NCBI GenBank assembly: GCA_963662285.2
Contig: CAXXMV010000006.1
Span: forward strand, 1,152,001 to 1,216,000
DNA length: 64,000 nucleotides
DNA from: a bacterium
GTDB taxonomy: Bacteria; Hinthialibacterota; Hinthialibacteria; Hinthialibacterales; Hinthialibacteraceae
Direction: 5' to 3'
Made by a program: the position numbers and the translations under genes
The notes under the pieces: generated by a model
What the model was told of the DNA's origin: nothing
Seen by the model: the letters and a program-made list of their open reading frames with translations, nothing else
Database searches by the model: none
Part shown: in pieces, positions 1,701-39,547 of the stretch
Numbering within the stretch: position 1 is the stretch's first letter
Layout: the number at the start of each line of letters is the position of its first letter

Positions 1701-3251
1701 ATGAAGATAACTAAATGTGCAATATTCTGCTTTCTGTTTTCTACCAGTATCATTGGTTTCTGTGCAGATACTTTATTAGACGTACCTATATATGTTACAG
1801 GTGGTTTTTCAGAACCTTCTTGGGAACCTGGTAATGGCGCCGTACCTAATGGTGCGATAGAGGATCTACGGTTATTTGATGATGGCCAGTCAAATGGCGA
1901 TATAGTTGCAGATGATGGAATCTGGACCTGTGTTGTTTCCGGATTAGAGCCTTTTCAAGAATTTGATTGGAAAATCGCCAGTCCTGGTTGGAGTCCTGTC
2001 AATGTCCCCGACTCAGCTCCAACAAATCTTTGGGCTATTGCTGATGAAAATGGTACAGTTTCTTTCATGTTCGATACGAATTTCCAAAATGATGGTTTGC
2101 TGCCCGATGTTGGACAACCCAATAGTATTGGATTTGCCTATTCAGAATCGACCTGGGATGCGCTTCAACCCATAGACACTATTTCGTTAACCGGAAATTT
2201 CCAGACTCAGTTGGGAGGAGATATCGATTGGGATTTTTACAATGAAGAATCGCAAATCTTATTACGGGATGATGGTAACGGTTTTGATCAAATCGAGGGA
2301 GATGATATCTTTACCGGCTCGGTAACTGGATTGCAAAACGGTACGTATGAATACCGGGGAATAATTGAGTTTGATGATGTGTACTTTCCAGAATTTACTG
2401 CCATTGGATTAGCGAATGCTGAGCGGAATCTAAAGTTTAATGTTCTCGACAGTTCTGAGGAGATTGTATTTCAGTTGGATGCAAAAAAATCCCGCTTAGG
2501 TCCGATTGGGGATTCTTCTTCCCCTGGACCTCCATTCTACGCTCATTCAGCCGCTTGGGGGAATAGTTTTACTAATACAGAGGATATGGGAAACGCATTG
2601 GATTTGGTGTATCGAAAAATATTTACCGTCGTTGAACCAAACAATTATACAGTGCGAATACGCGACAAATCATTGAAAGAATATCCTGTATCAGGGAGTT
2701 ATCCGTTTACCACCACTGAGCCAAACCAGGAAGTTCAAGTAGTGTTTGATCAAAACCAATACGAAGATGATTACGAACCTTCATCAAATATTGTTTTTAT
2801 AGTTGATAACAAGACAAAATCACCATTGAACCAATGGGAATACGTACAGCTTGTCGGTGATTGTATGATTGATTTTGGTGGAGAATCGGACTGGAATGCG
2901 GACGATAGTGGATTTGAAGCTTTTGATCAAGGGATCGTTTCAGAGGGTGACCAAGTTGCCGATGATGGCGTTTTCGCTATCCGTATCCAAACAGACGCCA
3001 CGGCGGCTAACAAGCAGTTGAAAGCTGTTGGTAGAAGGCTTGATATGGGTGACGGGCAGTGGGATATTCAGATTGGTGGGCCAGGGGAAGGATTGACCAT
3101 CAACACAACCAATACGAATATTCCTTTCAGTTACACACCGGGTGAATACACTATCCAAATCGATACATTGACTGGTCGCGTCGGTGTAGGAAGCATACCA
3201 CCGGAACGTATGTCGTTTGAGGTTTCTGTAGGTGGATGGGAATTACATTAA
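1701..3251 (+). CDS. Exported protein with three choice-of-anchor-X-like (DDG...D..A.DG.[WF]) repeats and C-terminal VGGWELH tail
   Basis: Signal peptide; repeats LFDDGQSNGDIVADDGIWT, LRDDGNGFDQIEGDDIFT and AFDQGIVSEGDQVADDGVFA; acidic composition. Confidence 0.75.
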   Translation: MKITKCAIFCFLFSTSIIGFCADTLLDVPIYVTGGFSEPSWEPGNGAVPNGAIEDLRLFDDGQSNGDIVADDGIWTCVVSGLEPFQEFDWKIASPGWSPVNVPDSAPTNLWAIADENGTVSFMFDTNFQNDGLLPDVGQPNSIGFAYSESTWDALQPIDTISLTGNFQTQLGGDIDWDFYNEESQILLRDDGNGFDQIEGDDIFTGSVTGLQNGTYEYRGIIEFDDVYFPEFTAIGLANAERNLKFNVLDSSEEIVFQLDAKKSRLGPIGDSSSPGPPFYAHSAAWGNSFTNTEDMGNALDLVYRKIFTVVEPNNYTVRIRDKSLKEYPVSGSYPFTTTEPNQEVQVVFDQNQYEDDYEPSSNIVFIVDNKTKSPLNQWEYVQLVGDCMIDFGGESDWNADDSGFEAFDQGIVSEGDQVADDGVFAIRIQTDATAANKQLKAVGRRLDMGDGQWDIQIGGPGEGLTINTTNTNIPFSYTPGEYTIQIDTLTGRVGVGSIPPERMSFEVSVGGWELH

Positions 3252-3315
3252 AGAAATCGATACGAATACATAAATTCAATCGGTATTTTCGGTCATAGCA
3301 TGAAAGGAACTTTCA

Positions 3316-4452
3316 ATGTCACGATTGTTCAGTAAATTGATTATTGCTTTTATTGGCATCAGTGTTTTTTTAAGTTTAGTGTATGCGGAGCCACAGGTTC
3401 ATGTTATTAAAAATATGGATGTATATCGTGAGAAAGGGCGGTTTGGCGGGTGGCCTGCCAATCATGGGATGTGGCATTGGGGGAATGAGATTCTGGTTGG
3501 ATTCAGCCGGGGGTATTATAAGGATTTAGGTGACCGGCACCATATTGACAGGGAGAAGCCCGAAGAGCATCTTTTTGCCCGAAGCAAGGATGGCGGTATG
3601 TCCTGGAGTATTGAAGATCCTTCCAAGGTTATCGTTCCTAGAGGGAATACGCTTCATGGAATTAAGCCACCTCATCTTATTCCCGTTAAACCAGTTAAAA
3701 ATCAAACTCCAATTAATTTCACCCATCCGGATTTTGCGATGACGCTACGGATGCTGGATGTTAATTCAGGACCTTCTTTGTTTTATTATTCCCACGACCG
3801 TGGACGCAACTGGAAAGGGCCGTTTGAACTTATAATTAATGGTGTTAAAGGTATCGCCGCAAGGACCGATTATCTGGTTGATTCTTCCAAAGATTGCATG
3901 GCTTTCTTAACATGCGCCAAGGAGAATGGCCAGGAAGGACGCCCTTTTTGCGCCCGAACTCAGGATGGCGGCGTCACATGGAACCTTGTATCCCGGATCG
4001 GCCCGGAACCGGAGGGATTCTCAATTATGCCTTCATCAGTTCGGCTCTCTGAGACAGAATTACTTAGTGCAGTGAGACGGCGTGAAGGAGATAAACGCTG
4101 GATTGAAATTTACCGGTCGACCAGTAACGGTTCAAATTGGAGTTTATATAGCACTCCGACTGATAACATCGGTATCGGGAATCCGCCAAGTATGATTCAA
4201 TTACACGATGGCCGGATTTGCTTAACCTATGGTTACAGGGCTGAGCCGTTTAGCATCCGAACTCAGTTAAGTGATGATAAAGGGAAAACCTGGAGCAAAC
4301 CAATTAGCCTGCGCTCAGATGGAGCCAGCCGGGATCTTGGTTATCCACGGACCCTTCAACTGCCTGATGGCGTTATTGTGACGGTTTATTATTTTTGCGA
4401 TCATCTTTCTCCGGAACGGTATATTGGAGCAACTTTGTGGAGAGTAGAGTAG
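3316..4452 (+). CDS. Exported sialidase-like BNR/Asp-box repeat protein
   Basis: Signal peptide; Asp boxes SKDGGMSW, SHDRGRNW, TQDGGVTW, SDDKGKTW; DLGYP motif. Confidence 0.85.
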   Translation: MSRLFSKLIIAFIGISVFLSLVYAEPQVHVIKNMDVYREKGRFGGWPANHGMWHWGNEILVGFSRGYYKDLGDRHHIDREKPEEHLFARSKDGGMSWSIEDPSKVIVPRGNTLHGIKPPHLIPVKPVKNQTPINFTHPDFAMTLRMLDVNSGPSLFYYSHDRGRNWKGPFELIINGVKGIAARTDYLVDSSKDCMAFLTCAKENGQEGRPFCARTQDGGVTWNLVSRIGPEPEGFSIMPSSVRLSETELLSAVRRREGDKRWIEIYRSTSNGSNWSLYSTPTDNIGIGNPPSMIQLHDGRICLTYGYRAEPFSIRTQLSDDKGKTWSKPISLRSDGASRDLGYPRTLQLPDGVIVTVYYFCDHLSPERYIGATLWRVE

Positions 4453-4490
4453 TATTCTAATCTTTCATTAAAAAAAGGAATGGATGGATT

Positions 4491-5600
4491 ATGCCCGAAT
4501 CTGAGAAAAAAGAACTACTGTGGAGTAAGTTGGTTTTACGCTGGACGCTAATTCTGATGGGCGTGATAGCTATAGTTTGGGTATTGTATTGGAGCATATC
4601 AACTCTGGTGCTATTGGCGTTTAGCTTTTTGTTAGCCTACTTGCTTAATCCATTAGTTACAAAGTTAACTCAGCAGGGAGCGCCACGGACTGCATCGATT
4701 ATGATGTTGTTGTTTTTCTTTTTGATTGTAACCATTGGATTTACGCTATACATTGTTCCTAAAATCTCTGATGAAGCGGCGCGATTGATTAATCATAATG
4801 AGGCCTTTGCCAGCGCTACGGAGTGGATAAGCAATAATGTGAATCCCAAATTAGAGAAAATTGGAATCGAAGCATGGGGAGAAGAAGAACTTAGGACAAA
4901 AATCAATTATCTATTCTCTTTGATCAATAGTTATTATCCACAATGGATCAGGCCGACCTTTAACGCTTTTCATTCCATGTTTTCTGGCATAGCCAGTTTT
5001 ATAGTTGGTTTGTTAAGTTTGATGCTGGTTCCTGTGTTTACCTTTTATCTACTACGGGATTTTCCCAAGATCAGCCAATCGTTTTTTGAAATGATTCCTC
5101 CACATTGGCGGGCGATTGTCTCTGACTGGGGAGGCGAACTGGATCATGTCGTTGGTGGTTATATCCGAGGGCAATTCAGCATCGCTCTGTTTTTGGCGAC
5201 CATCAATGCTATCGGCTTGACAATATTGGGCGTCCCGTTCGGCTTCCTGATAGGATTTGTGGCTGGTATGGCTAACATGGTTCCCTATATGAGCATCGTG
5301 GTTGGCCTGATTCCGGCATTGATAATATCATTCCTGGATAAGCCGGAAATTTGGCGCTTGATCTGGATACTAATGATTTTCGGCGGCTCGCAGATGTTGG
5401 AGGGATTTTACCTGAGTCCACGGATTATGGGGCATGAAATTGGTTTGCATCCCGTGTTGATTATGCTGTCTATAATATTAGGCGGTTCAATATTTGGTCT
5501 TGTCGGTATTATACTGGCTGTGCCTACAATGGCGGTTCTTAAGGTAGTCGCAGTTCGGGCGCATCATGAATGGAAGAAAAAGTGGCCTCAGGAGGCTTAG
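4491..5600 (+). CDS. AI-2E family (PerM/YhhT-like) membrane transporter
   Basis: LAYLLNPLV, GYIRGQ, PRIMG..IGLHP and GIILAVP motifs; multiple hydrophobic helices. Confidence 0.92.
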   Translation: MPESEKKELLWSKLVLRWTLILMGVIAIVWVLYWSISTLVLLAFSFLLAYLLNPLVTKLTQQGAPRTASIMMLLFFFLIVTIGFTLYIVPKISDEAARLINHNEAFASATEWISNNVNPKLEKIGIEAWGEEELRTKINYLFSLINSYYPQWIRPTFNAFHSMFSGIASFIVGLLSLMLVPVFTFYLLRDFPKISQSFFEMIPPHWRAIVSDWGGELDHVVGGYIRGQFSIALFLATINAIGLTILGVPFGFLIGFVAGMANMVPYMSIVVGLIPALIISFLDKPEIWRLIWILMIFGGSQMLEGFYLSPRIMGHEIGLHPVLIMLSIILGGSIFGLVGIILAVPTMAVLKVVAVRAHHEWKKKWPQEA

Positions 5601-5667
5601 GTGGATTAAGCGCCCTTATTAGTTTGTTCCGCTTTGTTTTTTTGTATTCGTTATTGATTGTCATATA

Positions 5668-5692
5668 GGGCGCCCATGAAGGACGCCCCTAC
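5668..5692 (-). repeat. GTAG-type REP-like palindrome
   Basis: Minus strand reads GTAGGGGCGTCCTTCATGGGCGCCC; a relative lies at 49699-49724. Confidence 0.6.
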
Positions 5693-5748
5693 TGGTTTTA
5701 TTTCGTGTTTCTTTTAGTAAAGGTTCTTTTTTGTATCATAGTATTAGT

Positions 5749-5780
5749 CAAGGGCAGAAAGGACACTGCCCTTGGCGTCC
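5749..5780. repeat. REP-like palindrome family B (CAAGGGC...GCCCTTG)
   Basis: CAAGGGCAGAAAGGACACTGCCCTTGG, identical to the copy at 28777. Confidence 0.7.
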
Positions 5781-5843
5781 TTTTAGCATTATATTAGGTT
5801 GTATTGATAAGATTTAAGATGAATGTTTTAATGGAGATTATTA

Positions 5844-6803
5844 ATGTCTGGTACTGAAATGAACTATGTTTCGCTGGGGCGTTGCGGGATGAAAGTGAGC
5901 CGGTTTGCTCTTGGTGGATGGACTACATTCGGTGATAGCGTGGCCGATAAGCCCATAATCCGGAATATCCTGCAAACCGCTTTTGATAGCGGAATTAATT
6001 ATTTTGATATAAGTGATATATACAACCGGGGAGAGACCGAACGGGCTATGGGTTCTGTGCTGGCTGATTTTCCCCGGCATGAGATCGTGATAGCCAGTAA
6101 GGTCTTTTTCCCCATGAGTGATGATGTCAATGACCGGGGCTTGTCACGTAAACATATCATGGAATCGATCGAAAAAAGCCTTCAGCGTATTGGAACTGAT
6201 TATCTGGATATCTATTTTTGCCATCGCTTTGATGTTGAGACGCCTATTGAAGAGACAGTCCGCGCTATGGATGATCTGGTGCATCAAGGCAAGATTCTAT
6301 ATTGGGGAACCAGCGAATGGACTGGCGAACAAATAAATCAGGCTCATGAAATATGCGATAAGCGGAACCTCTATTTCTCTCAAGTCGAGCAGCCGGTCTA
6401 TAATCTTTTAACCCGTAATGCTTTTGAGAATGATGTGCAACCAACCGCTACCCGGTTGGGTAAGGGATTGGTTACTTTTAGTCCATTGGCCTATGGAGTT
6501 TTGACGGGGAAATATGATAACGGAATTCCCCAAGGTACAAGATTAGATCAAATTGAGTGGCTGCGGGACCGGTATTATAATGAAGAGTGTCTTAACCGGG
6601 TGCGCCAAATGGAAACCTATGCTAAGCAACTTGGATGCACCAGAGCGCAGCTGGCTTTGGCCTGGATTGCAGCCAATCCTGCGGTTTCGAGCGTTATAAC
6701 CGGAGCGACCAGCGTTGATCAACTCAAAGATAATCTAGGCGCTATCAAGGTTAAACTTGATAGTTCCATGATTGATAATCTCAATAGGCTGTTTCCTCTA
6801 TGA
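5844..6803 (+). CDS. Aldo/keto reductase (Kv-beta-like)
   Basis: GINYFDISDIY, GLSRKHIMES, DYLDIYFCHRFD, GKILYWGTSEW. Confidence 0.93.
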   Translation: MSGTEMNYVSLGRCGMKVSRFALGGWTTFGDSVADKPIIRNILQTAFDSGINYFDISDIYNRGETERAMGSVLADFPRHEIVIASKVFFPMSDDVNDRGLSRKHIMESIEKSLQRIGTDYLDIYFCHRFDVETPIEETVRAMDDLVHQGKILYWGTSEWTGEQINQAHEICDKRNLYFSQVEQPVYNLLTRNAFENDVQPTATRLGKGLVTFSPLAYGVLTGKYDNGIPQGTRLDQIEWLRDRYYNEECLNRVRQMETYAKQLGCTRAQLALAWIAANPAVSSVITGATSVDQLKDNLGAIKVKLDSSMIDNLNRLFPL

Positions 6804-6860
6804 TTCTAAAAACGTCAATTAGATTATAATTCAAAAGTCAATTGAAAAATCTATAGTTTT

Positions 6861-6903
6861 AGAAAACAACCCCCTCTTGGGAGAGGTTAGGAGAGGGTTG
6901 ATA
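6861..6903 (+). repeat. Internally deleted derivative of the ~150-bp composite palindromic element
   Basis: AGAAAACAACCCCCTCTTG is joined directly to GGAGAGGTTAGGAGAGGGTTGATA, the two ends of the 63805-63955 element. Confidence 0.6.
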
Positions 6904-7187
6904 TTAATCACTCTCGCAAAGAAAAAACCAGCAATATGAGATTAACTTTTTAGGTGAAATGAAACAATATTGTGTTATCATACTGATTACAAATGATTTA
7001 TTTAATTATTTGTAAATTAACCTCCGTTTTTTAGGATGATGCAAGATATGAAAAATCGATATAAAACTACTGTAAGTAATGTTAATGGATCGCAAGACAA
7101 GCGATCCATTGCTGCTCTTCATTGATTGAGATGGAATTGGTATTAAAATCATATTAATAGGTTAGAAGGGATTGATCCGTCGAAGAG

Positions 7188-7227
7188 CAACCCCCCTCTA
7201 ACTCCCCCCCAACTTGGGGGGAGAATT
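7188..7227 (+). repeat. REP-like palindrome family C
   Basis: CAACCCCCCTCTAACTCCCCCCCAACTTGGGGGGAGAATT; near copy at 28845-28884. Confidence 0.7.
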
Positions 7228-7269
7228 TTTGTTTTACCTAATTCAACATATATAAAGGATTGACATAGT

Positions 7270-7683
7270 TTGACAGACGCTAAACTGACTGAAAATAAAC
7301 AGGTTGTAGAATTTCGTGTTCGATACAGCGAGACGGATCAGATGGGTGGAATATATAACGCCCGCGTGTTGGAATGGTTTGAAGTCGGGCGCACGGAGTG
7401 GTTTCGCGGTAAGGGATTGGCATATACTGAAGTCGAAAAGAGGGGTATTTTCCTGCCCCTGGTTGAAGCGCATGTCGAGTATAAGGGACATGCTGAGTAT
7501 GATGATTTGCTCAAAATGACGGTTACTGGCTGCATCGCTGGTAAAGTCCGGCTGCGTTGCGATCATGAGATTGTTCATAGCGACAGCGGTAATCCTGTTG
7601 CGCAGGGTTATACAATACATGCCTGTTTGAATGAATCGGGCAAGCCGGTTCGGCTTCCGGAATGGCTGTTGGAGATAGTTTGA
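7270..7683 (+). CDS. Acyl-CoA thioesterase (YbgC/4-HBT hotdog family)
   Basis: RVRYSETDQMG...WFEVGRTE motif. Confidence 0.9.
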   Translation: MTDAKLTENKQVVEFRVRYSETDQMGGIYNARVLEWFEVGRTEWFRGKGLAYTEVEKRGIFLPLVEAHVEYKGHAEYDDLLKMTVTGCIAGKVRLRCDHEIVHSDSGNPVAQGYTIHACLNESGKPVRLPEWLLEIV

Positions 7684-7769
7684 TTGGATAGGTTATATCA
7701 AGTGTTAGACTGATTGGTGTAAGTCTTTAATATGGAGTGTTTTATTTGTAGTTTATTTTTGTGGATTTA

Positions 7770-7806
7770 CCCCTCACCCTAGCCCTCTCCCGTGGGGAGA
7801 GGGGAC
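7770..7806 (+). repeat. REP-like palindrome family C
   Basis: CCCTCACCCTAGCCCTCTCCCGTGGGGAGAGGGGAC; one mismatch to the copy at 10138. Confidence 0.75.
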
Positions 7807-7910
7807 TTGGTTGTCCGATTTTATAGAGTGAATTTATATTAAAATTAGTTTAAATCATATAAAGTTAGAACAAATCTAGAGTTTGAAAAATATATGTCTG
7901 TGAGAGCGTT

Positions 7911-9545: not shown

Positions 9546-9551
9546 ATTAAG

Positions 9552-10031
9552 ATGACTAATAAAGTTACCAACGTCGTGGTGGCCGGATTAGGTGGTCAGG
9601 GCGTACTTAAAGCGTCTGATATTTTGGCGGAAGCGGTGTTTGGCGCTGGATTCGATATAAAAAAAGCTGAAGTGCATGGCATGAGCCAGCGCGGCGGCTC
9701 GGTGAACAGCGACGTCCGTTTTGGCGACCGGGTTGATAGCCCGATGGTTCCCGATGGCCAGGCTGATTATCTGGTGGTGTTATCCGAAGACCAGATTGAT
9801 AATAATCTTGATCGTTTGCGTGAAGGCGGCGTATTGATCGTACCGGATAATATTGACAAGAAAGCTTTGTCTAATCCAAAAAGTTTGAACGTGGCGCTGC
9901 TGGGCGTTTTGAGTTCTCATCTGGGTATTGATGAAAAATTCTGGATAGAATCGATTTTGGCGAATCTTCCAGAGAAAATTCATGAAGTGAATAAAGCGGC
10001 GTTTGCTTTAGGTAAAGAAAGCGTTTCATGA
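9552..10031 (+). CDS. iorB: Indolepyruvate:ferredoxin oxidoreductase beta subunit
   Basis: GLGGQG and EVHGMSQRGGSV; directly follows iorA. Confidence 0.92.
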   Translation: MTNKVTNVVVAGLGGQGVLKASDILAEAVFGAGFDIKKAEVHGMSQRGGSVNSDVRFGDRVDSPMVPDGQADYLVVLSEDQIDNNLDRLREGGVLIVPDNIDKKALSNPKSLNVALLGVLSSHLGIDEKFWIESILANLPEKIHEVNKAAFALGKESVS

Positions 10032-16516: not shown

Positions 16517-17533
16517 ATGAGAAAAGTTTTGTTTTTGCTACTGCTGTGCGCAGCTCCGTTGATGACTCAGGCGCAACTATTTGAACCTGGTAATGTTATC
16601 TTTGCTGATCCATTTTATTCACCAGATGGTCAAATTGTTGAGTTGAAGATCACTGGTAATGAAGCTGAAGTAATCAATGTCGTCCGGTGGGATTTGGGCG
16701 ACACAGATCGCCGTCGCGCTTTGGGATTGGATGTTGATCCCAGCGGCAATGTCTGGGTAGGTCTGACTGCCGCTTATGGTGATGACAGCGAATTCCCTGA
16801 AGGAATCGGCGAAATTCTACGCATCGACAGTCAAGGCAACCAGCAAATATTTCAGACCGATATAACAAAAGTAACTTTCCTTACTGCTGTCGGTACTGAC
16901 GAAGTTATTATTCAGAGTAATGTTGCGACTGATAATTTTGCTCTGGGTTATAAGGTCGAAAATGGTGAAGTAGTAGATTCTCCCTATTATGAAAAAACAG
17001 GTTATGGTGAAGCTCTGCTGCTGCCTGACGGTCGCTTGCTGATGGGTGATCATGTTACTGGTGGAATTCTATTATTTGATAAAGCTGGTGGAGCATCTAC
17101 TGGCATGTTCTCTGAAGTTTTGGGTGCTGATGGTAATGCAAGAACGGTCCGTTCGCTGACCTATAATAATGAGATAGGCGCGGTTATCGCTTCTCTGCAA
17201 GATCAACACACCTTCCTGCGTATAAACTTGAATGGTGAGATCGAAGAAGAATATAATGGAACCGCTGATGGATTTACCGGAGTGTGGGGCGTCGCGCAGA
17301 TACCTGGAACAACCCAGTTCATAACTGGAAACCATAATGTTGCAGATTTAGCTAATACTTTGGCTATTTTTGATGCCAATGATCTGGCTGCCGGTCCACG
17401 CTTGATTGAAATTACATCTGGTTTTGAGCAAGCTGGTTTGGAAGCTGGAACCTCGTTCCAATCATTCTTTAACATCGCTGTAGTACCAGGCGCTGAATTC
17501 CCGGTTGGCCTTGCTGAATGGCAATTGTTCTAA
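16517..17533 (+). CDS. Exported probable beta-propeller protein with C-terminal LAEWQLF tail
   Basis: Signal peptide MRKVLFLLLLCAAPLMTQA; blade-like GLDVDPSGNVWVG and LPDGRLLMG; AGGAG RBS. Confidence 0.7.
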   Translation: MRKVLFLLLLCAAPLMTQAQLFEPGNVIFADPFYSPDGQIVELKITGNEAEVINVVRWDLGDTDRRRALGLDVDPSGNVWVGLTAAYGDDSEFPEGIGEILRIDSQGNQQIFQTDITKVTFLTAVGTDEVIIQSNVATDNFALGYKVENGEVVDSPYYEKTGYGEALLLPDGRLLMGDHVTGGILLFDKAGGASTGMFSEVLGADGNARTVRSLTYNNEIGAVIASLQDQHTFLRINLNGEIEEEYNGTADGFTGVWGVAQIPGTTQFITGNHNVADLANTLAIFDANDLAAGPRLIEITSGFEQAGLEAGTSFQSFFNIAVVPGAEFPVGLAEWQLF

Positions 17534-19105: not shown

Positions 19106-20920
19106 ATGAAGAAAGTATTTGATATTTATCTACCTTTCATCGTGTTTGGTTTTTGTGTGTGTATGGTCTTTCTGGTTCCATTGGCAATGGCGCAAGATGT
19201 GGAAGACGAGATTCCTACGGCGGTGATTCAACTTCAGGCAGTAACTGAGCAAGACCTCACTGATAATGGGATCACCACGGGTCGAGCTACAGGTTTACCC
19301 GTAGTCGGTTATGGAACCACCGTTTATCTTTTGGGTAGTGGAATACCAGTGGAAGAAACCGAGATCATAGGATACCAATGGACCATCACTGGTGATGATT
19401 TCTTATTCGACTCAACCGAGCAGAATCCAACTTTTGTTCCTGCAGTCGTAGGAACCTACAAAGTCGAGTTGGTAGTAACGGATTCTGCTGGAGAAAAGAG
19501 TAAACCGGCTAGCTTGGATATCACGGCGGCGAAATGGCTAGGGGTTGCGAATTGCGCGATATGTCATTCTGACACCCCTCTCAAACTGGGTAACCGATTC
19601 GAAGAATGGAGCATGACGGGTCATGCTGCGTTTTTCGCGGAAAATATCGATCACGGCGCAGCTTATTATGGTGAGCGTTGCATCCATTGCCACACGGTTG
19701 GATACGATGAACTGGTCGATAATGGAGGTTTTGACGATGTAGCCAGGAAATTAGGCTGGACATACCCCGAAACCAAGGAAGCAGGGAACTGGGCAAAAAT
19801 GCAAATGGATTACCCTGATCTAGCCAATTTGGCTAATATTCAATGCGAAAACTGCCATGGACCGGGAGGTTCGCATTACGGCAACAGATTTAAGATTGCC
19901 ACCACTTTCGATTCCGGGATGTGCGGTTTCTGTCACGATGCGCGTGGCGGCGGTAATCATGTCAAAAACTACCAATGGGATACGTCTAATCATGCGAGTT
20001 TCCCCCCGATTCGTTCTGGTCCAGGCAGTGAAAGCTGCGTACCATGTCATACCGGTATCGGCTTTGTGATGACGCACGATGAAGATTACGCAACTCATAA
20101 GCTCTCGACTGAACCCTCAGCTATTGGTTGCGCTGTTTGTCACGATCCGCATAATGAGGATAACGAGCATCAAGTGCGCGTGGTTAAAGATGTCACGCTT
20201 GGAAACGGAGTCGTGGTGACGGCGGAAGAAGCTGGATTAGGCGCTCTCTGCATAAACTGCCATAAAGCGCGAACCAATGTGGATGAATATGCTTTGGAAT
20301 ATCACAGCCGCTTCGGACCCCATCACGGACCGCAAGGCGATTTGGTCAAAGGCACGGGTGGTTATGAATATCCTGATATTACCTATACCTCTTTTTCGCC
20401 TCACATGAAGGTAACTGGTGATTCATGCGTGACCTGTCACATGGCTGAACCGCCTGAAGATGCTCCAGATCGAGCTGTTGGACTCCACACCTTCCGAATG
20501 TCGGCTGCAGCAGGGGAAATTGAAGGAGTCACTGAAGACGTCGTCAACACGAACGCCTGCGCGAGATGTCATGGTGAAATGGAATCGATCAATTATATGG
20601 CTAAAGGCGACTATGACGGAGACAACGTGCGGGAAGGCATCCAGGACGAAGTTAGCGGCTTGATGGAATTAGTTGGTCATCTGCTTCCTCCATACGGTTC
20701 TCCCGATGTCGCTGTGGCGGATACTTACACCGATGCCGAACTGAAAGCGGCGTATAACCATATCTTTCTAGAAGAAGATAGAAGCCAAGGCGTCCATAAT
20801 CCGCAATACGCTGTGCAACTCTTGCAAAGCTCTTACTTCTCGATGACCGGCCAGAATATTCCTAATGCATATATGCTCATTGAATGGACGACGCCTGTGG
20901 ATAATTGGTCGATATACTAA
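19106..20920 (+). CDS. Exported nonaheme cytochrome c with N-terminal PKD-like domain, NrfA/OcwA-like C-terminal bundle and VDNWSIY tail
   Basis: Nine CxxCH motifs (CAICH, CIHCH, CENCH, CGFCH, CVPCH, CAVCH, CINCH, CVTCH, CARCH); GYQWT...GTYKVELVVTD PKD pattern; EDRSQGVHNPQYA. Confidence 0.9.
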   Translation: MKKVFDIYLPFIVFGFCVCMVFLVPLAMAQDVEDEIPTAVIQLQAVTEQDLTDNGITTGRATGLPVVGYGTTVYLLGSGIPVEETEIIGYQWTITGDDFLFDSTEQNPTFVPAVVGTYKVELVVTDSAGEKSKPASLDITAAKWLGVANCAICHSDTPLKLGNRFEEWSMTGHAAFFAENIDHGAAYYGERCIHCHTVGYDELVDNGGFDDVARKLGWTYPETKEAGNWAKMQMDYPDLANLANIQCENCHGPGGSHYGNRFKIATTFDSGMCGFCHDARGGGNHVKNYQWDTSNHASFPPIRSGPGSESCVPCHTGIGFVMTHDEDYATHKLSTEPSAIGCAVCHDPHNEDNEHQVRVVKDVTLGNGVVVTAEEAGLGALCINCHKARTNVDEYALEYHSRFGPHHGPQGDLVKGTGGYEYPDITYTSFSPHMKVTGDSCVTCHMAEPPEDAPDRAVGLHTFRMSAAAGEIEGVTEDVVNTNACARCHGEMESINYMAKGDYDGDNVREGIQDEVSGLMELVGHLLPPYGSPDVAVADTYTDAELKAAYNHIFLEEDRSQGVHNPQYAVQLLQSSYFSMTGQNIPNAYMLIEWTTPVDNWSIY

Positions 20921-24234: not shown

Positions 24235-25374
24235 ATGTCTGGAGGTGACAACATGTATGTTAAAAGGCGTATTCATCAAAGAAGGAAAATGATATTTAGA
24301 ATAAATGGAATTTTAACTTTTCAAATATTAATAATTCTTATTGCTATAGTAGCGTCACAGGGAATTTGCTCTGAAATTGAAACCATCCACAATCCCTTAT
24401 TAACTATTCCACCCGGGTACTCAAAAGGGGTAACTTCCGTCGTTGTTTTTTCAGATGATTCTCGAATCATAACGGGGTCTGGTGATGGCGTGATTATATA
24501 CTGGGATAGTATATCCCTCGAGATGATTAGAATGTTCTTTGATCATGAAGGCGGCGTGACTGCTTTGGCTATTTCGGCGGATGAGGGGAAATTTTTATCC
24601 GGCAGTGGAGACAATAGCGCAAAACTATGGGATTTGGAAACAGGAGAAATCATCAGTCAATTCGAAGGGCACTTAGGCGCAGTAAACAGCGTGGCTTTCT
24701 CGCCAAAGGGCGAATATGTACTTACCAGCAGCAATGATGGGACTGCCAAACTGTGGAATAGTACTAATGCTAAAGTAGTGCATACATTTAGTGGACATGA
24801 AGATTCTGTAAATTCTGCGGTTTTCTCTCCTGATGGGTCTCATGTTATCACTGGATCACAAGATCAGACAGCGCGTATTTGGAACTTGGAGAAACCAGAC
24901 CAACCAATCAGGATTATAGAACATACAGGAAGCATAAATAATGTCGAGTTCTCTCCTGATGGAACTAAATTCCTTACTTGTGGGCAAAATGTTATCCTAT
25001 GGGAGTTGCATAGCGGGAAACCTCTTCATGAATGGTCAACATCAAATTCTTTTACTCCTTGCGCTTTTTCAAAAGATGGTAAGCAGGTTTTTGTTGGTTT
25101 TAATTTGTATGATGTTGAGAGTGGAAATCTAGTTGAGTCATTTTTTAATCATTCTTATACTCCACGAAGCAATGCTTTTGTTCATGATGGGAAATCTTAT
25201 GTAAACGGTTTTACTATATGGAATCTAATACAGGGAAATCTGAACAACCTACCTTTATTCGCGGTTTATATCTTGCGCACATTGCAAACGCTGTATTTTC
25301 ACCTAATGGAAGGACTGTTCTTTTTGCTTCTGGTCGTTCAGGGCAAAAACCGATTGATCATTCAAAGCAATTAA
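24235..25374 (+). CDS. Exported WD40 repeat protein, N-terminal part (frameshifted near 25225)
   Basis: Signal peptide; GH...V.SVAFSP.G...SGS.D.TAKLW repeats; the WD pattern is lost after about 25225. Confidence 0.8.
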   Translation: MSGGDNMYVKRRIHQRRKMIFRINGILTFQILIILIAIVASQGICSEIETIHNPLLTIPPGYSKGVTSVVVFSDDSRIITGSGDGVIIYWDSISLEMIRMFFDHEGGVTALAISADEGKFLSGSGDNSAKLWDLETGEIISQFEGHLGAVNSVAFSPKGEYVLTSSNDGTAKLWNSTNAKVVHTFSGHEDSVNSAVFSPDGSHVITGSQDQTARIWNLEKPDQPIRIIEHTGSINNVEFSPDGTKFLTCGQNVILWELHSGKPLHEWSTSNSFTPCAFSKDGKQVFVGFNLYDVESGNLVESFFNHSYTPRSNAFVHDGKSYVNGFTIWNLIQGNLNNLPLFAVYILRTLQTLYFHLMEGLFFLLLVVQGKNRLIIQSN

Positions 25375-26261
25375 CTCCGGAAAGTGGTGAAATATCTGTA
25401 GGTTCAGTGACAATGTGGGACATTATTACCGGGGAATTGTTATTGACTCTTCCCGATCATGCTTATCCTACTGCAATTGCGTTTTCTAGAGACGGCGCAA
25501 AGATTGCGACAGGCGAATCTTGTAAATATGAGCGTCCCCATCTGCGTGTGTGGAGCGCTCAAACCGGGGAATTATTACAGGCTTTTCCCTCTTTCTCTGG
25601 CATGGTGAAAAAATTGTCGTTTTCACCAGATGTTCATAAGATTGTTATCATACATTTCAGTGAAAATCGTGAAATGGCGGAAATTTGGGATGTAGAGAGT
25701 GGTGAACTGATTCAACAATTAACAGTGGATGATATACCTCTAACGGATATTTCTTTCTCGCCCGATGGAAAGAAGGTTCTCGCAGGAGACTATGACGGAA
25801 ATCTTAAACTATGGGATGCGGAGACGGGTGAATTACTAAAAATGTGGATTGGGCATGATCCAAATAAAGTTACCACAGTCGGTTTCTCACCAGATGGAAC
25901 AAAAATGGCTTCAGGAGGTGAGGACGATATGGTGAAGGTATGGGATATGAAAACAGGCCAACTTCTTCAGACCTTATACCAAGTAACTATTTACTCTTTA
26001 GCCTTCTCTCCCGATGGAAACTATCTTCTTGGTGGATCTTATTCCTCATCTTCAAGCGATTCTGGCGATATTTTTATATGGGATGTAAACAGTGGTGAGC
26101 AATTGGTCCGTTTTCGTGGGAACCATATATTATCGAGATCGGTAGCATTTTCGCCCGATGGAGGGCTAATTGTGACCAGTGGAAGTGATGGTTCAGCGAA
26201 AATATGGGACGTAAGCGAATTCATCAAGGATTCTTTTGTTCAAAGGTGGAGTTTATATTAA
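25218..26261 (+). CDS. WD40 repeat protein, C-terminal part, ending in VQRWSLY
   Basis: WD repeats continue in the other frame; adding 1 nt at TGG-AAT-CTA-(A)AT-ACA-GGG gives WNLNTGK and one continuous ORF. Confidence 0.8.
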   Translation: MESNTGKSEQPTFIRGLYLAHIANAVFSPNGRTVLFASGRSGQKPIDHSKQLTPESGEISVGSVTMWDIITGELLLTLPDHAYPTAIAFSRDGAKIATGESCKYERPHLRVWSAQTGELLQAFPSFSGMVKKLSFSPDVHKIVIIHFSENREMAEIWDVESGELIQQLTVDDIPLTDISFSPDGKKVLAGDYDGNLKLWDAETGELLKMWIGHDPNKVTTVGFSPDGTKMASGGEDDMVKVWDMKTGQLLQTLYQVTIYSLAFSPDGNYLLGGSYSSSSSDSGDIFIWDVNSGEQLVRFRGNHILSRSVAFSPDGGLIVTSGSDGSAKIWDVSEFIKDSFVQRWSLY

Positions 26262-34583: not shown

Positions 34584-34968
34584 GACAGTATCCTTTACCT
34601 TTTATAAATTTAATCGAATTAATATGCTTGTGTATAACCACGTTATGTTTTTAATTTTGTTTGACAACGAACAATAATATTGAGAGGATATCGAATCTCA
34701 AATATCACTTGTTTTGACGCATCATAATCAAAAATCTTCACACGATTTAAATATTACTCGATTTGTGATTTAAACAGAGTTGATAAGGGTGTTTTTAGAG
34801 AAATTCTAACCTTGAAAAGTGGAATACTACGGCATTTCCACTAGTATCAAACCATTACAAAAATGAAGCAATATACTTTTCAGCGCCTTCTTTCGATAGA
34901 TATGACGATTCTCATTTGTTATACTAAATTCAGGATATTGGAGATACGTAAAAATTATTGGAGGAACC

Positions 34969-36516
34969 ATGAAAATTAAGTACTGTGTTTTGATTTTTAT
35001 TGCAATGTTAGTTGTTTTTGCGCCATTTAATGCATCATACGCCCAACCAGTCGAACAGTCTCCAGTCGCCGCCGGGCCGGAAGCGGTTGGCATCGTACCT
35101 CTGACTGGCGACGTCAATCTCTGGGCTGAAAACGGCGGAGGCAGCAACTGGTGGAGACCGGATTGCGACATGCTCAGCAATGGCAACGCTATTGTGTTGG
35201 GCGGCATGCGCAAAGTCCCTTACGCATCGGGCGGTCCCGACGCCGAAAACGCCCGCGATATGATCGCGGTTTTTTCACCCACAGGCGAGTTGCTAGTACC
35301 TGCGCGTACCGCGTTCTTTACCAATGCCGGTGAACCGTGGGAAAACACTATCTGTACGATCCGCAATGATGATAAATTTTACGGTCTCTGCGCTGATACA
35401 GTTGGAGGCCGTTCCGGCGACCGCTATGTTGTCCATACCATCGCCAATCCACACATGTTTCCTGACGCTTTCCCCGGTTACGCCGCAGACTACCGCAACG
35501 ATTACCATACCGCGATTCAGATAATCAACAACGATGGCACTCCAGAAACCAACTTAATCAACATTTACGGCGATTACCTCTCAGAAAACGGTCTCTTGCG
35601 CGGCGGGATGGTTCGTTTCCTGTCCAATGGCAATATTGTTGTCAATTATGAAGACCGCCAAACCAGTAGCCTGAAAGCTGAAGTCTATGGTAGAGAAAGG
35701 CCCGGCCAAATCGTTGGCGCCGTGATTCTCGCCCCGGATGGCAGCATCGTCAAAGACAAGTTCGCGGTTAGCAGCGACAGCCGCAGTAATTCTTCAAACC
35801 GTTTCGGCCTAACTTCCGGCGATGGCTGGTTTGCTGTGCGTTATGATGACGCAATTACCGGCCCCACTATCGTGGCCTATGATAACGATGGCAACGAACT
35901 GGGCGGCGGCGAGGGGCGCATATATACGGCTATTGATATTCCCGAACTGGGCGGCGATGGCGGCAACCGGGGCGACCCCAATGGACTCGAAGCGGTAGGC
36001 GACGTTCTATATATCACCCATCGGGGAATCGACCGGGCGGGCTATCTAACCACCTTTAAGGTAAGCGATGCTGGAGTATCGGTCATTAGAACAGTACGTT
36101 TTTCGGATCAATCTTGGAGCACCTTCGAACATAACGCCGATCTGGGCGTTGATTCGGCGGGCAATGTCATTGTCTTGTGGCAGGATCAGGCATGGGACCG
36201 TTTTCAAACGGGGCGTTGGGAAGCCTTGGCTAGAATGTTTGACGCCAACCTGGAACCTTTGACGCCGTCGTTCTGTATGTTTGAAATCGGCAATAATACT
36301 GATGAGGATGAGATTGATCCTATCTTGGGTCCAGGGCGCACCAAGCAATGCCGCATCGCTATGAACGATGATATTATCATCGCCATCGCTGAAACCAATA
36401 ACGCGCCCTATGGCGACCCGTCATCGATTGCAGACGAATATTTCACCTATACATTCATTGCCAGAATGCTGAAGAATCCAACTCAGACTCCAGTCCTCAA
36501 CTGGGAGGTCTTTTAA
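34969..36516 (+). CDS. Exported protein of unknown function (probable beta-propeller) with C-terminal VLNWEVF tail
   Basis: GGAGG RBS; signal peptide ending ASYA-Q; repeated LSNGN[AI] and DSAGNVIV blade-like segments. Confidence 0.7.
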   Translation: MKIKYCVLIFIAMLVVFAPFNASYAQPVEQSPVAAGPEAVGIVPLTGDVNLWAENGGGSNWWRPDCDMLSNGNAIVLGGMRKVPYASGGPDAENARDMIAVFSPTGELLVPARTAFFTNAGEPWENTICTIRNDDKFYGLCADTVGGRSGDRYVVHTIANPHMFPDAFPGYAADYRNDYHTAIQIINNDGTPETNLINIYGDYLSENGLLRGGMVRFLSNGNIVVNYEDRQTSSLKAEVYGRERPGQIVGAVILAPDGSIVKDKFAVSSDSRSNSSNRFGLTSGDGWFAVRYDDAITGPTIVAYDNDGNELGGGEGRIYTAIDIPELGGDGGNRGDPNGLEAVGDVLYITHRGIDRAGYLTTFKVSDAGVSVIRTVRFSDQSWSTFEHNADLGVDSAGNVIVLWQDQAWDRFQTGRWEALARMFDANLEPLTPSFCMFEIGNNTDEDEIDPILGPGRTKQCRIAMNDDIIIAIAETNNAPYGDPSSIADEYFTYTFIARMLKNPTQTPVLNWEVF

Positions 36517-36562
36517 GACATCACAAGCAAGACGGTATTCTTATTCCTGAAATGGAGAACTC

Positions 36563-39547
36563 ATGTTCTTAAATATAAGTAATTCAGTCTATTATGCAAA
36601 GCAATTGATACGTTCTTCTCTGCTATGTTTATTATGCTTTTATTTATCGAATCCGGTTGTGGCTCAAGATGCAGCATGGACTCCATCGATCGTAACAGAG
36701 CTAACCTTCGATCTTTTTACTATTGAAGACTCAACCCGTGATGATTTTATCCGTACTGGAAAGTACATTACTCCGGCGGATGATGATCCATCACTGCTAC
36801 AGACCGTTTTTCAGGATGTAAATAAATACCGGCTGCATCTGGAATTTATGGTTGCCGAATTTCCCGAACGCTTTGCTGGTTTAACTTCAGCTGAATACGC
36901 TGACATGGTGTTAAAGCGCAGCGTCCGGCAATATTTCGCTGGTTCCATCTTTAAAATCAAGACGCGGCAAAACGAAATAATGTACGGTTTCAACGTCGAA
37001 ACCAATCCCGCTGAACCAGTTGAACTCGCTGAAGCGATAGATGTGTATCATCAATTAGCTGCTGTAATGACGCTGCGGCCTTTGGTTTATGCTCCCATAT
37101 CAATAAACGATATTGAACGTGCGGCGCCGTGGAGCGTCAATTCTCAGATGCCAATTTATCTACCCGATGCGCAGGTAGCGCAGGATTACGAAGTATACTC
37201 ATCTGCGGTTAATTATGGCCGCGTTAGGTTGGTTGAACTTGATGAGTTGGCTGATCTGGTGGATAGCGGCCAGGTCGGGTGGCAGGATATCGTGGTCATA
37301 GATAGTGCGCCATCTGATATCGAAACGGTGGTAGCAGGAGTGGTGACAGGCTCTCTGCAGGGAGAACTATCCCATGTCAATGTGCGTTCTCTGCGTCGCG
37401 GGACGCCCAATGCGTATATTAAAAATCCGCATGAAGTGTTTGCGCCCTATGAAGGCCAACTGGTTAAAATAGATTTCGGGCAAGAAAACTACCAAATTAT
37501 CGCGCCTGTAGATTTATCAGAAGCCGAAGCCTGGTGGGATGAGCGCCGCCCTAAACTGGAACCGCTGCCTGAATCAGGCGACGATTTTACCGACCTGATA
37601 ACTCTACCGGATTTAGCTGTTTTGCTGGATCACTCAGAAACTGTAACCAGGTACGGCGGCAAAACTTCTGGTATTGTCCAGTTATACAGATTTCTCGATG
37701 ACTCGTTTTTGGTAGATGGATATGGCATCCCCTTTTACTATTACCTTGAGTTCATGAGATCAAATACCATACCAGATTTTCGTAATCCAGAACAACATGT
37801 AACCTATGAAGAATATATAAACCTGCTCTCGGAAGATGAAAAATTCCGCAGCGACTCGGTTTACCGCTTTGAGATTCTCAATGAATTTCAAGATTACATG
37901 CGCGACAATGGCCGCATTAGCCCTGCTTTGATTGATCTAATCGTCAACCAGACCATCGACGTTTTTGGCTCGTCAGACGTCAAAATACGTTTCCGTTCAT
38001 CCTCCAATGCCGAAGATAGCCTCGAGTTCAACGGAGCGGGACTCTACGATTCAACCTCGGCCTGCGTACTGGATACGCTCGACGTTGATGATGAGGGGCC
38101 TTGTAATTGCGATCCCGGCGAAAAGGCGGAACGCACAGTCGAGCGTGGTCTGAAGAAAGTCTGGGCCAGTCTGTGGAATACCAGAGCATTTGAGGAGCGT
38201 GAGTATTTTCAAATCGACCATACAAAAGTCCGTATGGGAATATTAGTATCGCGCGCTTTTCCAAGCGAAGACTCCAACGGTGTGGCCTTTACAGGCGACC
38301 CTGTAGCTGGAAACAAAGACTATTATGTAATCAACGTTCAACAAGGCGATGAAAGCGTAGTTCAGCCCGGAACAGGCATCATATCTGAAAAAGACATTCT
38401 TTCTATCGAAAATGGTCAGGTGATCAGCCTTAACCGTTCGCGTGGTTCTTCATTGCTGACCGCTGGCCAATGGGTTCTTTCAGAAGAGCAACTAAACCAG
38501 CTCGGGGCAGTTATGCATGAAATCGATATTAACATGCCGCTTGGAGAGTATGAAAACCTGCGCGACCGGATTATTTTTGATATAGAGTTTAAGTTCCAGG
38601 ATGGCGTTTTAGTACTCAAACAATTTCGACCTTCGCTGATTGCTTCAGAATTGAATCCACCAAACCAAGACTTATTTACTATTCAGATTCCACCTGATAC
38701 CAAAGTTGTAGGCGTATTTCAAGAAGGCCGTTCCTTGATTGATGAGTATGAGTTGTTATCGACCATCCATTTTGCTGAGGGAGATTTCACCATACCTACC
38801 AATCCGGGGCAATATGATTTAGATATAATTAAGCGCTTCGAGTTTGGCCGCAAAGATCAAACTGCTGAAGCCCTGGGGACAGGCCGTGTGGATGTCTCTG
38901 TCGAAACGGGCGTCGATAGTGATATTGTCAGGTTTAAATTTATGCAGGATTTCAAGGTTAATGGTAATACGATTAACTTATCTATCGATAATTTATGGAC
39001 TAGCATTACGAACGGAGCATTGGATCAGGAATCATTGCTTTTTGATGAACCTTATTTGTCGCAAAATCTTTACATGTTAGGTAAAATGCAGGTTGGAGTT
39101 CGCATTATATTCTTGAGATTTGCATCATCCGGATACGAAAGTCTGCCATTGTATCTTCTTGATCTGCAACTGGAAGACAATCAGTTCATTCAGCTCTATC
39201 AGCGTTGGCAGCCTCCTATGGCCGGTTCAGGTCCGGCAAACCTGGTTTTTGCAACCTACAATATCCATGAAGGCATTGGCATTCAATCGGATTATTGGAA
39301 CCTGATCTATGCTGCTGAACATCACAATTGGAATGAACAATATTGGGTGTTTTTTGATGAACCGATTGGCGAAGCCTTCGGTCTGGCCGTCATTACCGAA
39401 GATTTTCCCAGTGCTATAGAGGTCTATACCTTAGACGCAGATTTATACCCTCTACGCAGCATTGAAATTAACTCGATTATCAAGGAACTCTACCTGGGCG
39501 TCTTTCCACCATCAGTGAATGTAAAATCTTGGCAATTATATAATTAA
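36563..39547 (+). CDS. Exported PEP/pyruvate-binding (PPDK N-terminal, ATP-grasp) domain protein with C-terminal VKSWQLYN tail
   Basis: Signal peptide; YGGKT, RFRSSSNAEDSLEFNGAGLYDS, VWASLW, NGVAFT, DIEFKF...LKQFRP. Confidence 0.82.
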   Translation: MFLNISNSVYYAKQLIRSSLLCLLCFYLSNPVVAQDAAWTPSIVTELTFDLFTIEDSTRDDFIRTGKYITPADDDPSLLQTVFQDVNKYRLHLEFMVAEFPERFAGLTSAEYADMVLKRSVRQYFAGSIFKIKTRQNEIMYGFNVETNPAEPVELAEAIDVYHQLAAVMTLRPLVYAPISINDIERAAPWSVNSQMPIYLPDAQVAQDYEVYSSAVNYGRVRLVELDELADLVDSGQVGWQDIVVIDSAPSDIETVVAGVVTGSLQGELSHVNVRSLRRGTPNAYIKNPHEVFAPYEGQLVKIDFGQENYQIIAPVDLSEAEAWWDERRPKLEPLPESGDDFTDLITLPDLAVLLDHSETVTRYGGKTSGIVQLYRFLDDSFLVDGYGIPFYYYLEFMRSNTIPDFRNPEQHVTYEEYINLLSEDEKFRSDSVYRFEILNEFQDYMRDNGRISPALIDLIVNQTIDVFGSSDVKIRFRSSSNAEDSLEFNGAGLYDSTSACVLDTLDVDDEGPCNCDPGEKAERTVERGLKKVWASLWNTRAFEEREYFQIDHTKVRMGILVSRAFPSEDSNGVAFTGDPVAGNKDYYVINVQQGDESVVQPGTGIISEKDILSIENGQVISLNRSRGSSLLTAGQWVLSEEQLNQLGAVMHEIDINMPLGEYENLRDRIIFDIEFKFQDGVLVLKQFRPSLIASELNPPNQDLFTIQIPPDTKVVGVFQEGRSLIDEYELLSTIHFAEGDFTIPTNPGQYDLDIIKRFEFGRKDQTAEALGTGRVDVSVETGVDSDIVRFKFMQDFKVNGNTINLSIDNLWTSITNGALDQESLLFDEPYLSQNLYMLGKMQVGVRIIFLRFASSGYESLPLYLLDLQLEDNQFIQLYQRWQPPMAGSGPANLVFATYNIHEGIGIQSDYWNLIYAAEHHNWNEQYWVFFDEPIGEAFGLAVITEDFPSAIEVYTLDADLYPLRSIEINSIIKELYLGVFPPSVNVKSWQLYN

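Follow-up and report, generated by a model that had tools for sequence, protein, structure and literature searches.

A nine-residue tryptophan-centred tail, probably an undescribed address label, on exported proteins of the Hinthialibacterota

Why should six exported proteins with unrelated domains, scattered along one stretch of bacterial DNA, end in the same few residues? The question arises from a window of 64,000 nucleotides (by "window" I mean the whole stretch of DNA that was analysed), taken from contig CAXXMV010000006.1 of the Hinthialibacteraceae assembly GCA_963662285.2; in the numbering used here, where C1-C8 are the contigs of the source genome, G000, it is C6:1152001-1216000. The initial annotation had proposed that the shared ending, which I call the W-tail, is an undescribed C-terminal sorting signal. 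The analysis reported here supports that interpretation: the tail probably represents a so far undescribed address label that marks proteins for the cell surface or the exterior, a sorting or docking role being what comparison of the sequences suggests. Put more fully, I consider it rather likely that the W-tail is a lineage-wide C-terminal address tag carried by unrelated proteins that are exported by Sec and bound for the surface or the outside of the cell.

The pattern W.[LIVM][FYH].?$ ends 6 of the 191 open reading frames (ORFs) of at least 60 aa in the window, and all six are the proteins originally singled out (Table 1). Translation places all six quoted C-termini at the ends given for them, for example EVSVGGWELH at the end of 1701-3251 and PVGLAEWQLF at the end of 16517-17533, a protein that is also in the genome-wide list of tails described below. 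What did not hold is that 24235-26261 is one open frame. It consists of two WD40 ORFs that lie in different frames and share 157 nt, and the split is either a frameshift, real or introduced in assembly, or a pair of genes. Each of the other five has a plain signal-peptide-like N-terminus, and their domains are unrelated. The annotation had also stated that the window holds no recognizable machinery for such a tail, and none was found there.

Table 1. Tail-bearing proteins of the window (positions counted from its first nucleotide) and the two PorU-like peptidases of the source genome (contig positions).
Feature	Position	Strand	Length (aa)	Tail or domains
Exported protein, X25/CBM-like and choice-of-anchor X domains	1701..3251	+	516	VSVGGWELH at 3222-3248
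Exported protein, no Pfam family	16517..17533	+	338	VGLAEWQLF at 17504-17530
Exported PKD and multihaem cytochrome protein (MtrC/MtrF-like domain)	19106..20920	+	604	TPVDNWSIY at 20891-20917
Split WD40 protein, N-terminal ORF	24235..25374	+		no tail; signal-peptide-like or anchor-like N-terminus
Split WD40 protein, C-terminal ORF	25218..26261	+		SFVQRWSLY at 26232-26258
Exported protein, no Pfam family	34969..36516	+	515	TPVLNWEVF at 36487-36513
Exported protein, PPDK_N-type ATP-grasp domain	36563..39547	+	994	VNVKSWQLY plus extra residue N, 39515-39544
PorU-like C25 peptidase	C8:485880-491375		1831	C25 and CARDB
PorU-like C25 peptidase	C2:500515-504318		1267	C25 and CARDB

Is this ending peculiar to the window? 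The source genome comprises 7.29 Mb in 8 contigs at 44% GC, and its ORFs of at least 80 aa, with overlaps resolved greedily from the longest down, gave 5365 proteins covering 88% of the DNA. The motif ends 156 of these, against 3.7 expected from the internal frequency of the same 4-mer, and the genome-wide tail counts are lower bounds because the overlap filter dropped the tail-bearing WD40 ORF. A broader pattern that admits degenerate ends (such as DWMIWE and NWELQ) takes in 189 proteins. Aligned on the tryptophan, the 156 tails give the logo T-x-V-x-[DNE]-W-[SEM]-[LI]-[YFH]-stop. Upstream, position -5 is Thr in 92 (then V 29, S 19), position -3 is Val or Ile in 138 (V 108, I 30), and position -1 is D in 46, N in 36, E in 25, and S and G in 11 each; downstream, the commonest residues are S 50, E 35 and M 21 at +1, L 98 and I 33 at +2, and Y 96, F 38 and H 22 at +3. 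The aromatic residue at +3 is followed directly by the stop codon in 128 tails and by one further, mostly polar, residue in 28. Since neither the Thr nor the Val was part of the search pattern, their conservation is an independent confirmation of the motif. Beyond -6 the information content is at background save for a slight excess of Pro, Gly and Glu, which bears out the view that conservation is at the protein level and confines it to about nine residues.

The placement of the motif is as telling as its number. The 9-mer [TSV].[VI].[DNE]W.[LIM][YFH] occurs 84 times in 2.13 million residues, and 69 of these copies stand at the very end of a protein, 12 have one residue after them and 1 has two. 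The 2 internal copies (C1:1156453-1158240 and C2:537179-539590) each sit some 140 residues short of the C-terminus, as though a former tail had later gained another domain behind it.

Which proteins carry it? Signal peptides were called with two home-made heuristics, one loose and one strict, rather than with SignalP; the strict rule also requires that no later transmembrane segment be present. Under the loose rule 140 of the 156 tail proteins have signal-peptide-like N-termini, compared with 2050 of the 5209 others, and several of the 16 negatives visibly bear signal peptides. Under the strict rule the figures are 122 of 156 and 996 of 5209 (odds ratio 15.2, p 7e-55 by these home-made rules), and the tail stands on about 11% of the soluble proteins with a strict signal peptide. 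The enrichment on which the initial annotation had staked its claim is therefore present. A lipobox-like N-terminus was seen in only 7 of the 156.

To this can be added a domain scan of 49 of the 156, chosen because they cluster within 20-kb stretches and are shorter than 1300 aa, and thus not a random sample. No Pfam family was found at 1e-5 in 23 of them. The rest are diverse: CBM9 (8), CotH with a lamin-tail domain (LTD; 4), periplasmic-binding-protein types (3), FG-GAP (2), and also S9 and S15 peptidases, LamG, WD40, beta-helix, DUF3160, a tyrosine phosphatase and others. The tail is found on giant proteins of 1800-2900 aa as well. Among envelope housekeeping proteins met along the way it was absent from secretins, TonB-dependent receptors and DegP-, CtpA- and tricorn-like proteases, and likewise from alpha-2-macroglobulin and PBP1C.

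Might the tail be no signal at all, being instead the closing strand of a C-terminal fold that these proteins share, or a feature of composition or chance? Many tail proteins do have a jelly-roll or lectin-type domain at their end, the final strand of which, DN[FIV]xV, precedes the tail by about 10 residues. Yet information is at background beyond -6, and the tail is coil in both of two AlphaFold2 models. In that of the first window protein (1701-3251; 13-sequence alignment, mean pLDDT 84.9) the last strand ends at 493-496, residues 497-516 are coil, and 508-516 have a pLDDT below 50. In that of the window cytochrome (95 sequences, pLDDT 92.1) the last confident helix spans 566-581 and pLDDT drops from 73 to below 50 along the tail. 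The models thus predict a flexible appendage behind a variable Pro/Gly/Glu-rich linker and not, in either protein, an integral strand of the preceding domain. Moreover, the tail sits on WD40, cytochrome, CBM9, CotH, peptidase, binding-protein and unclassified folds, and neither the excess over the expected 3.7 nor the fact that 82 of the 84 9-mers fall within two residues of the end sits well with composition or chance. I regard the idea that the tail is not a signal as close to refuted, and hardly credible.

How far does the tail reach beyond one genome? For the source phylum, represented in the collection by 35 genomes of one class, I counted per genome the matches to a DNA pattern that encodes T-x-[VIM]-x-x-W-x-Φ-[YFH]-stop and, as a control, to its reversed form. 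The source genome has 82 hits (control 4). The 19 other genomes of its family (f1) have 20-77 (control 0-5), four of family f2 have 13-41 (0-2), two of f3 have 7-19 (0-2), one of f4 has 8 (2), seven of f5 have 4-27 (0-6), and the single genome of f6, G027, has 1 (1). The pattern is above control in 34 of 35 genomes. In G027, whose GC content is 65%, none of 60 signal-peptide-like proteins read by eye in 400 kb bears the motif.

The tail also extends to a second phylum. The initial annotation had tentatively pointed to similar tails in phyla resembling Sumerlaeota and Hinthialibacterota, and it was right: the nearest relatives of one tail protein bear, in their source records, the names Candidatus Hinthialibacter sp., Ca. 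H. antarcticus or Candidatus Omnitrophica, in keeping with the phylum Hinthialibacterota/OLB16, and tails do occur in metagenome-assembled genomes titled Candidatus Sumerlaeota, where the first window protein has homologues at 32-40% identity. Loci in the phylum that holds these genomes follow a local consensus [SA]-V-x-[DN]-W-x-[LIVM]-[YF]. With the looser pattern V-x-[DN]-W-x-Φ-[YF]-stop, 29 of the 61 genomes sampled there have at least 5 hits, 16 have 1-4 and 16 have none (controls 0-3). The low counts understate the tail's frequency because loci there show more tails than the pattern catches; one zero-count genome shows the variant end TSVGRWEWYR.

Conservation within a single family tells the same story on a smaller scale. 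Among 13 homologues of the first window protein (itself included, 32-100% identity), 11 end in the strict W-x-[LIVM]-[YFH] and 2 in near variants (WSLLE and WQLW); W513 is invariant, and the linker before it drifts in both length and sequence. To judge from this alignment, selection acts on the tail. The first window protein matches Pfam X25_BaPul_like and NCBIfam choice_anch_X (E 7e-11), the latter a name that we may presumably take to denote domains seen with alternative C-terminal anchors.

What do homologous proteins of other phyla carry in place of the tail? Two cargo families give an answer. For the CotH/LTD protein at C2:450995-452989, the best 120 of 678 homologues include 47 with a strict W-tail and about 11 in which 3-12 extra residues come after the motif, while 45 end in a type IX secretion system (T9SS) C-terminal domain (CTD; PF18962 and/or PF13860) and 2 more in look-alikes; a dockerin is found on 1 (P0107), and the remainder end otherwise. 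The W-tailed members are the closer relatives, at 40% identity or more. For the window cytochrome, among the best 120 of 1417 homologues, the 4 closest are W-tailed (2 strictly, 1 with three extra residues, 1 in degenerate form), a T9SS CTD closes 53-55, and about 8 extend no further than the core. Several of those with a CTD, from KSB1, Calditrichaeota, Latescibacteria and Rhodothermales, are named "T9SS type A sorting domain-containing protein". One further CotH homologue, in a tail-free genome (G095), has a dockerin-like repeat at its end. The suggestion that homologues elsewhere might carry T9SS domains or dockerins at the same position thus proved correct, and the W-tail, in these two families, occupies the position of the T9SS C-terminal sorting domain on homologous cargo of other phyla.

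About 45 more of the cytochrome homologues (P0168-P0254) share a different C-terminal module, ...W.N.G.P..GTG....TR....F[YF]RV..., often together with PF18884, which may be another sorting or anchoring module in other phyla.

Does the W-tail belong to any class of signal already known? None of the six window proteins matches an NCBIfam sorting model at E<=1, in line with the original contention that it fits none of the established signals. Like the tripartite signals (LPXTG/sortase, PEP-CTERM/exosortase, GlyGly-CTERM/rhombosortase and MYXO-CTERM/myxosortase), the tail is C-terminal, recurs many times in a genome, has a short motif with near-invariant residues and goes with a signal peptide on the same protein. 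In one account of such signals (10.1101/2023.06.07.544157) these features are listed among their attributes, alongside a transmembrane helix and a basic cluster. The W-tail, in contrast, has neither the helix nor the basic, Arg-rich cluster, as the annotation had noted: the protein stops 3-4 residues after the Trp. By regular expression, PEP-CTERM-like or LPXTG-like ends are found on 0 of the 5365 proteins. The exosortase family PF09721 has no match in the source genome, which is 92.5% complete; the sortase, rhombosortase and CPBP families were not searched for.

The T9SS CTD (type A, TIGR04183/PF18962, and the FlgD_ig type, PF13860) is the closest parallel. It too stands at the extreme C-terminus of unrelated Sec-exported surface or secreted proteins, and the tail resembles it in being borne by some 150-190 proteins per genome and in its interchangeable position on homologous cargo. 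It differs in size and form, however, the CTD being a folded beta-sandwich of about 70-90 residues and the W-tail nine residues that are unstructured in the models. The TIGR04183 model has 0 matches in the source genome and matches in 8 of the 61 second-phylum genomes, as single hits that do not complement the tail. No candidate for SprA_N (PF14349) was found in the source genome, a search in which no positive-control genome matched either, and no SprA was found in the 16 of 31 ORFs of at least 1700 aa that were scanned against NCBIfam; GldL, GldM and GldN were not searched for. The GldK matches in that scan of giant ORFs are generic sulfatase-modifying-factor domains.

Other C-terminal signals fit less well. 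Outer-membrane proteins (OMPs) end in a beta-signal that is read by BamA, and a Y-x-F end of such proteins activates DegS. Like theirs, the terminal residue of the W-tail is aromatic and at or next to the C-terminus. Its cargo is nevertheless soluble and multi-domain, its hydrophobic positions (-1, -2, -4 and -7 from the end) do not alternate, and the 28 tails with an extra polar last residue do not resemble a beta-signal. The genome's own barrel proteins end differently, for example in ...LTYRF and ...LMYKF. Substrates of type I secretion systems carry an extreme C-terminal motif of acidic and then hydrophobic residues and lack an N-terminal signal peptide. The W-tail is comparably short and unstructured, with an acidic or amide residue before hydrophobic ones, but 122-140 of the 156 tail proteins (by the strict and loose rules) have signal-peptide-like N-termini. 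Dockerins, finally, are also C-terminal appendages of extracellular enzymes, replace the tail in some homologues, and have potential partners in the cohesin-like domains of the source genome; the tail, though, lacks their Ca-binding repeat pair and has 9 residues rather than about 60. No PF00404 dockerin was detected in the six window proteins or in the 49 further tail proteins scanned. In the literature, at the level of listings, abstracts and term searches, no description of the tail was found, and by term search neither "C-terminal" nor "secretion system" occurs in PMC9324843 or PMC8092238.

If the tail is an address, what reads it? In the scheme that I favour, cargo would cross the inner membrane by Sec and then the outer membrane, a step for which machines of the type II secretion system (T2SS) kind are present in three operons, and would thereafter be recognised through its tail. 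The most likely single reader, proposed tentatively from sequence similarity, is one or both of the PorU-like C25 peptidases in Table 1. They match the NCBIfam PorU sortase model NF033707 at E 1e-68 and 8e-57, the first over model positions 5-743 of 1095, which cover the N-terminal domains of PorU as well as its catalytic domain. Both keep the His/Cys dyad (the histidine of GHG, and the cysteine), and their only solved relative is PorU itself (6za2). PorU is reported to remove the CTD and to attach anionic lipopolysaccharide (A-LPS) (PMC4560394, PMC8545088). By analogy, the PorU-like enzymes would bind an extended nine-residue site, cut off the last residues, and, in the manner of PorU acting on CTD cargo, either set the cargo free or join it to an acceptor at the surface. 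Full-length Peptidase_C25 domains (PF01364) are encoded throughout both phyla, by 35 of 35 genomes in one and 61 of 61 in the other, and by 0 of 14 control genomes. A PorU-type enzyme without T9SS-type cargo therefore sits in genomes where families that are T9SS cargo elsewhere carry the W-tail. Furthermore, 1 to about 12 residues are tolerated after the motif, and so a recognition or cleavage site fits better than a ligand held by its free carboxylate.

Several observations weigh against this scheme, or against parts of it. The PorU-like matches score 232 and 193 bits, below the NCBIfam cut-off of 420. PorU is described in PMC4804311 as cutting "in a sequence-independent manner" behind a folded CTD, which is unlike reading a 9-mer, and position -1, the putative P1, is only moderately conserved in the tail. 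Tail-free genomes, among them G027 and all 16 zero-count genomes of the second phylum, encode C25 peptidases too, and the two PorU-like genes adjoin tail genes no more often than tail density predicts. Three of the 49 scanned cargo proteins are of a periplasmic-binding-protein type, not expected outside the cell, and the export link itself depends on home-made signal-peptide rules. Lastly, none of the candidate machines co-varies with the tail across the 61 second-phylum genomes (29 with at least 5 hits, 16 with 1-4, 16 with none), in crude tests that take no account of kinship among these genomes; Peptidase_C25, at 61 of 61, does not separate tail-rich from tail-free. The candidate machines are universal in both phyla and the tail is not, and this is the main weakness of any reading that relies on PorU-like enzymes, on docking or on the T2SS.

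The surroundings of the PorU-like genes hold nothing telling. Three outer-membrane barrels have sub-threshold matches to the PorV/PorQ family, two of them at 60 and 45 bits against a cut-off of 90; the one with 60 bits follows, after 28 nt, the gene of a 958-aa exported protein with a cohesin domain (C3:327247-331306). As a single-sequence query, a PorV/PorQ-like OMP found no match in the other phylum, a search that is uninformative. Candidate OMPs whose ends resemble a beta-signal proved to be TonB-dependent receptors, porins, alginate-export-like barrels or enzymes. Peptidase_C13 was set aside, its only matches being weak ones inside three giant proteins. A cluster at C8:1017932-1054799 encodes five giant exported proteins (1436-2388 aa), three with weak clan-CD (C13-like) matches and one with a sulfatase-modifying-factor domain, and also holds a BamG/PorV-like barrel (C8:1027178-1028449).

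A different kind of reader is suggested by the neighbours of the tail genes. The source genome encodes about 115 GspG-like prepilin paralogues of 150-250 aa (for example at C6:1705046-1707596), whose FTLIELLIVVAIIGILAAIAVPNF head hardly varies and which carry an SNGLxSxGDI motif at the C-terminus. Such a gene is the immediate neighbour of 22 of the 156 tail genes, where permutation gives 6.6 +/- 2.5 and 0 of 1000 shuffles reach 22; for other signal-peptide-like genes the figure is 94 of 1918 (odds ratio 3.2, p 2.6e-5). Of 27 tail-pilin pairs, 24 are on the same strand, and 15 of those are less than 150 nt apart, some overlapping by 1-4 nt. The arrangement recurs at 3 loci in 3 Sumerlaeota-titled genomes, and the pilin-like family was the only one to emerge from clustering of recurrent neighbours around 20 tail loci of low-count genomes. 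Could the tail then be a non-covalent docking peptide, a minimal "dockerin", whose receptor would be a GspG-like pilin or pseudopilin paralogue, a fibre of them, or a cohesin-like protein? The threefold enrichment and largely shared orientation of the pilin-like genes speak for this, as do the cohesin-like domains, which in two giant tail proteins stand directly before the tail, and the dockerin-like repeat that ends the CotH homologue of the tail-free genome. The tail-adjacent pilins are nonetheless scattered over the family tree and form no clade, and a strict tail is borne by only 16 of the 97 genes that closely neighbour a pilin-like gene on the same strand. The prepilin N-terminal pattern is present in 61 of 61 second-phylum genomes, at 10-128 genes each, with counts that do not track those of the tail (rank correlation 0.16, non-significant). 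The cohesin-domain protein of a secretin operon (described below) is encoded in 60 of 61 with or without tails, and dockerin PF00404, in 44 of 61, does not complement the tail (-0.15, p 0.24). A complex prediction for an operonic pilin-cargo pair (C6:1705046-1706733) gave no answer (score 0.00, run without controls) and speaks neither for nor against binding. On this evidence I think docking an unlikely explanation of the tail.

Two clusters with cohesin-like domains deserve description. An unusual operon at C8:417000-432000 encodes a secretin of 1057 aa with TPR and STN domains at its N-terminus, a PilM-PilN fusion of 693 aa, a TPR protein, two exported proteins with cohesin domains and a sigma-54 activator. 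At C2:1568724-1590589 lies a row of six large paralogues, exported proteins of 735-1522 aa with cohesin-like domains. Four have QVNDGQIRINLNYPE at the end, and two W-tail genes flank the row.

Perhaps no later reader is needed, and the tail is an outer-membrane export signal that a T2SS-type machine reads directly, with no processing afterwards. The source genome has 8 secretin matches, three complete-looking T2SS operons (C1:556-567k, C6:875-890k and C7:12-24k) and a single Omp85, and no T9SS translocon was found by the searches given above. The cargo is folded and Sec-dependent, and partly of kinds that the T2SS exports elsewhere; cytochromes of the MtrC type, for instance, are T2SS substrates. 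Against this, no PDZ-bearing GspC-like gene was found in the three operons, the T2SS is not known to have a linear signal, and the T2SS markers are present regardless of tails (rank correlation -0.21, non-significant): T2SSK_1st (PF21687) is found in 50 of 61 second-phylum genomes, including most of the zero-tail ones, and is missing at E<=0.001 from the tail-rich G084 and G052, and the GspK of one of the operons (operon C) is in 60 of 61. Direct reading by the T2SS is, I believe, improbable.

The tail might also be addressed to the periplasm, as a site for PDZ proteases (CtpA, the tricorn-like S41 enzymes, DegP/Q) that would make it a maturation or degradation tag and no address. The PDZ domains of DegS, Prc and Ctp bind a hydrophobic or aromatic C-terminus, and the source genome encodes one CtpA-like, two DegP-like and three tricorn-like S41 PDZ proteins, the last of about 1100 aa; a protein with three PDZ domains is an RseP-type site-2 protease. 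The fit is poor because 28 of the 156 tails and many orthologues have residues after the aromatic one, where PDZ binding involves the free carboxylate. Why a phylum should keep a degron on about 11% of its exported proteins would also be hard to explain, and the equivalence with T9SS sorting domains points to export. I therefore think this explanation very improbable.

To return to the preferred address-tag reading and its PorU-like reader, what would follow if it were true? A still bolder proposal is that the two phyla possess a sorting pathway of their own, in which an anchor-less tag of nine residues replaces the 80-residue T9SS domain and is read by stand-alone PorU-type C25 transpeptidases, possibly with the pilin-like family, giving sortase-like attachment or release without the T9SS translocon. 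I hold this as a speculation, and in its entirety a doubtful one. If the tail is an address, it would mark the proteins that two little-known, uncultured, polymer-degrading phyla secrete or carry on their surface, some 150-190 per genome, many of them without a family, and annotators could predict the location of these proteins from sequence alone. It would mean that a signal for secretion or attachment can be reduced from a folded domain to nine residues, and the stand-alone PorU-like peptidases, which are widespread, and the very large families of pilin-like genes would gain a testable function. A tag so short could also serve for surface display.

A few observations on the window itself remain. 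In the split WD40 protein the DNA of the overlap was read, and the shift point must fall near 25225-25262, where a long homopolymer is absent. The last of the six tail proteins, at 36563-39547, has a nucleotide-binding domain of the PPDK_N/PEP-synthase ATP-grasp type on an exported protein, which is odd for an ATP-free compartment. About 39 kb before the window, at C6:1100745-1113460, stand six tandem TonB-dependent receptor paralogues of about 690 aa, two of which were scanned.

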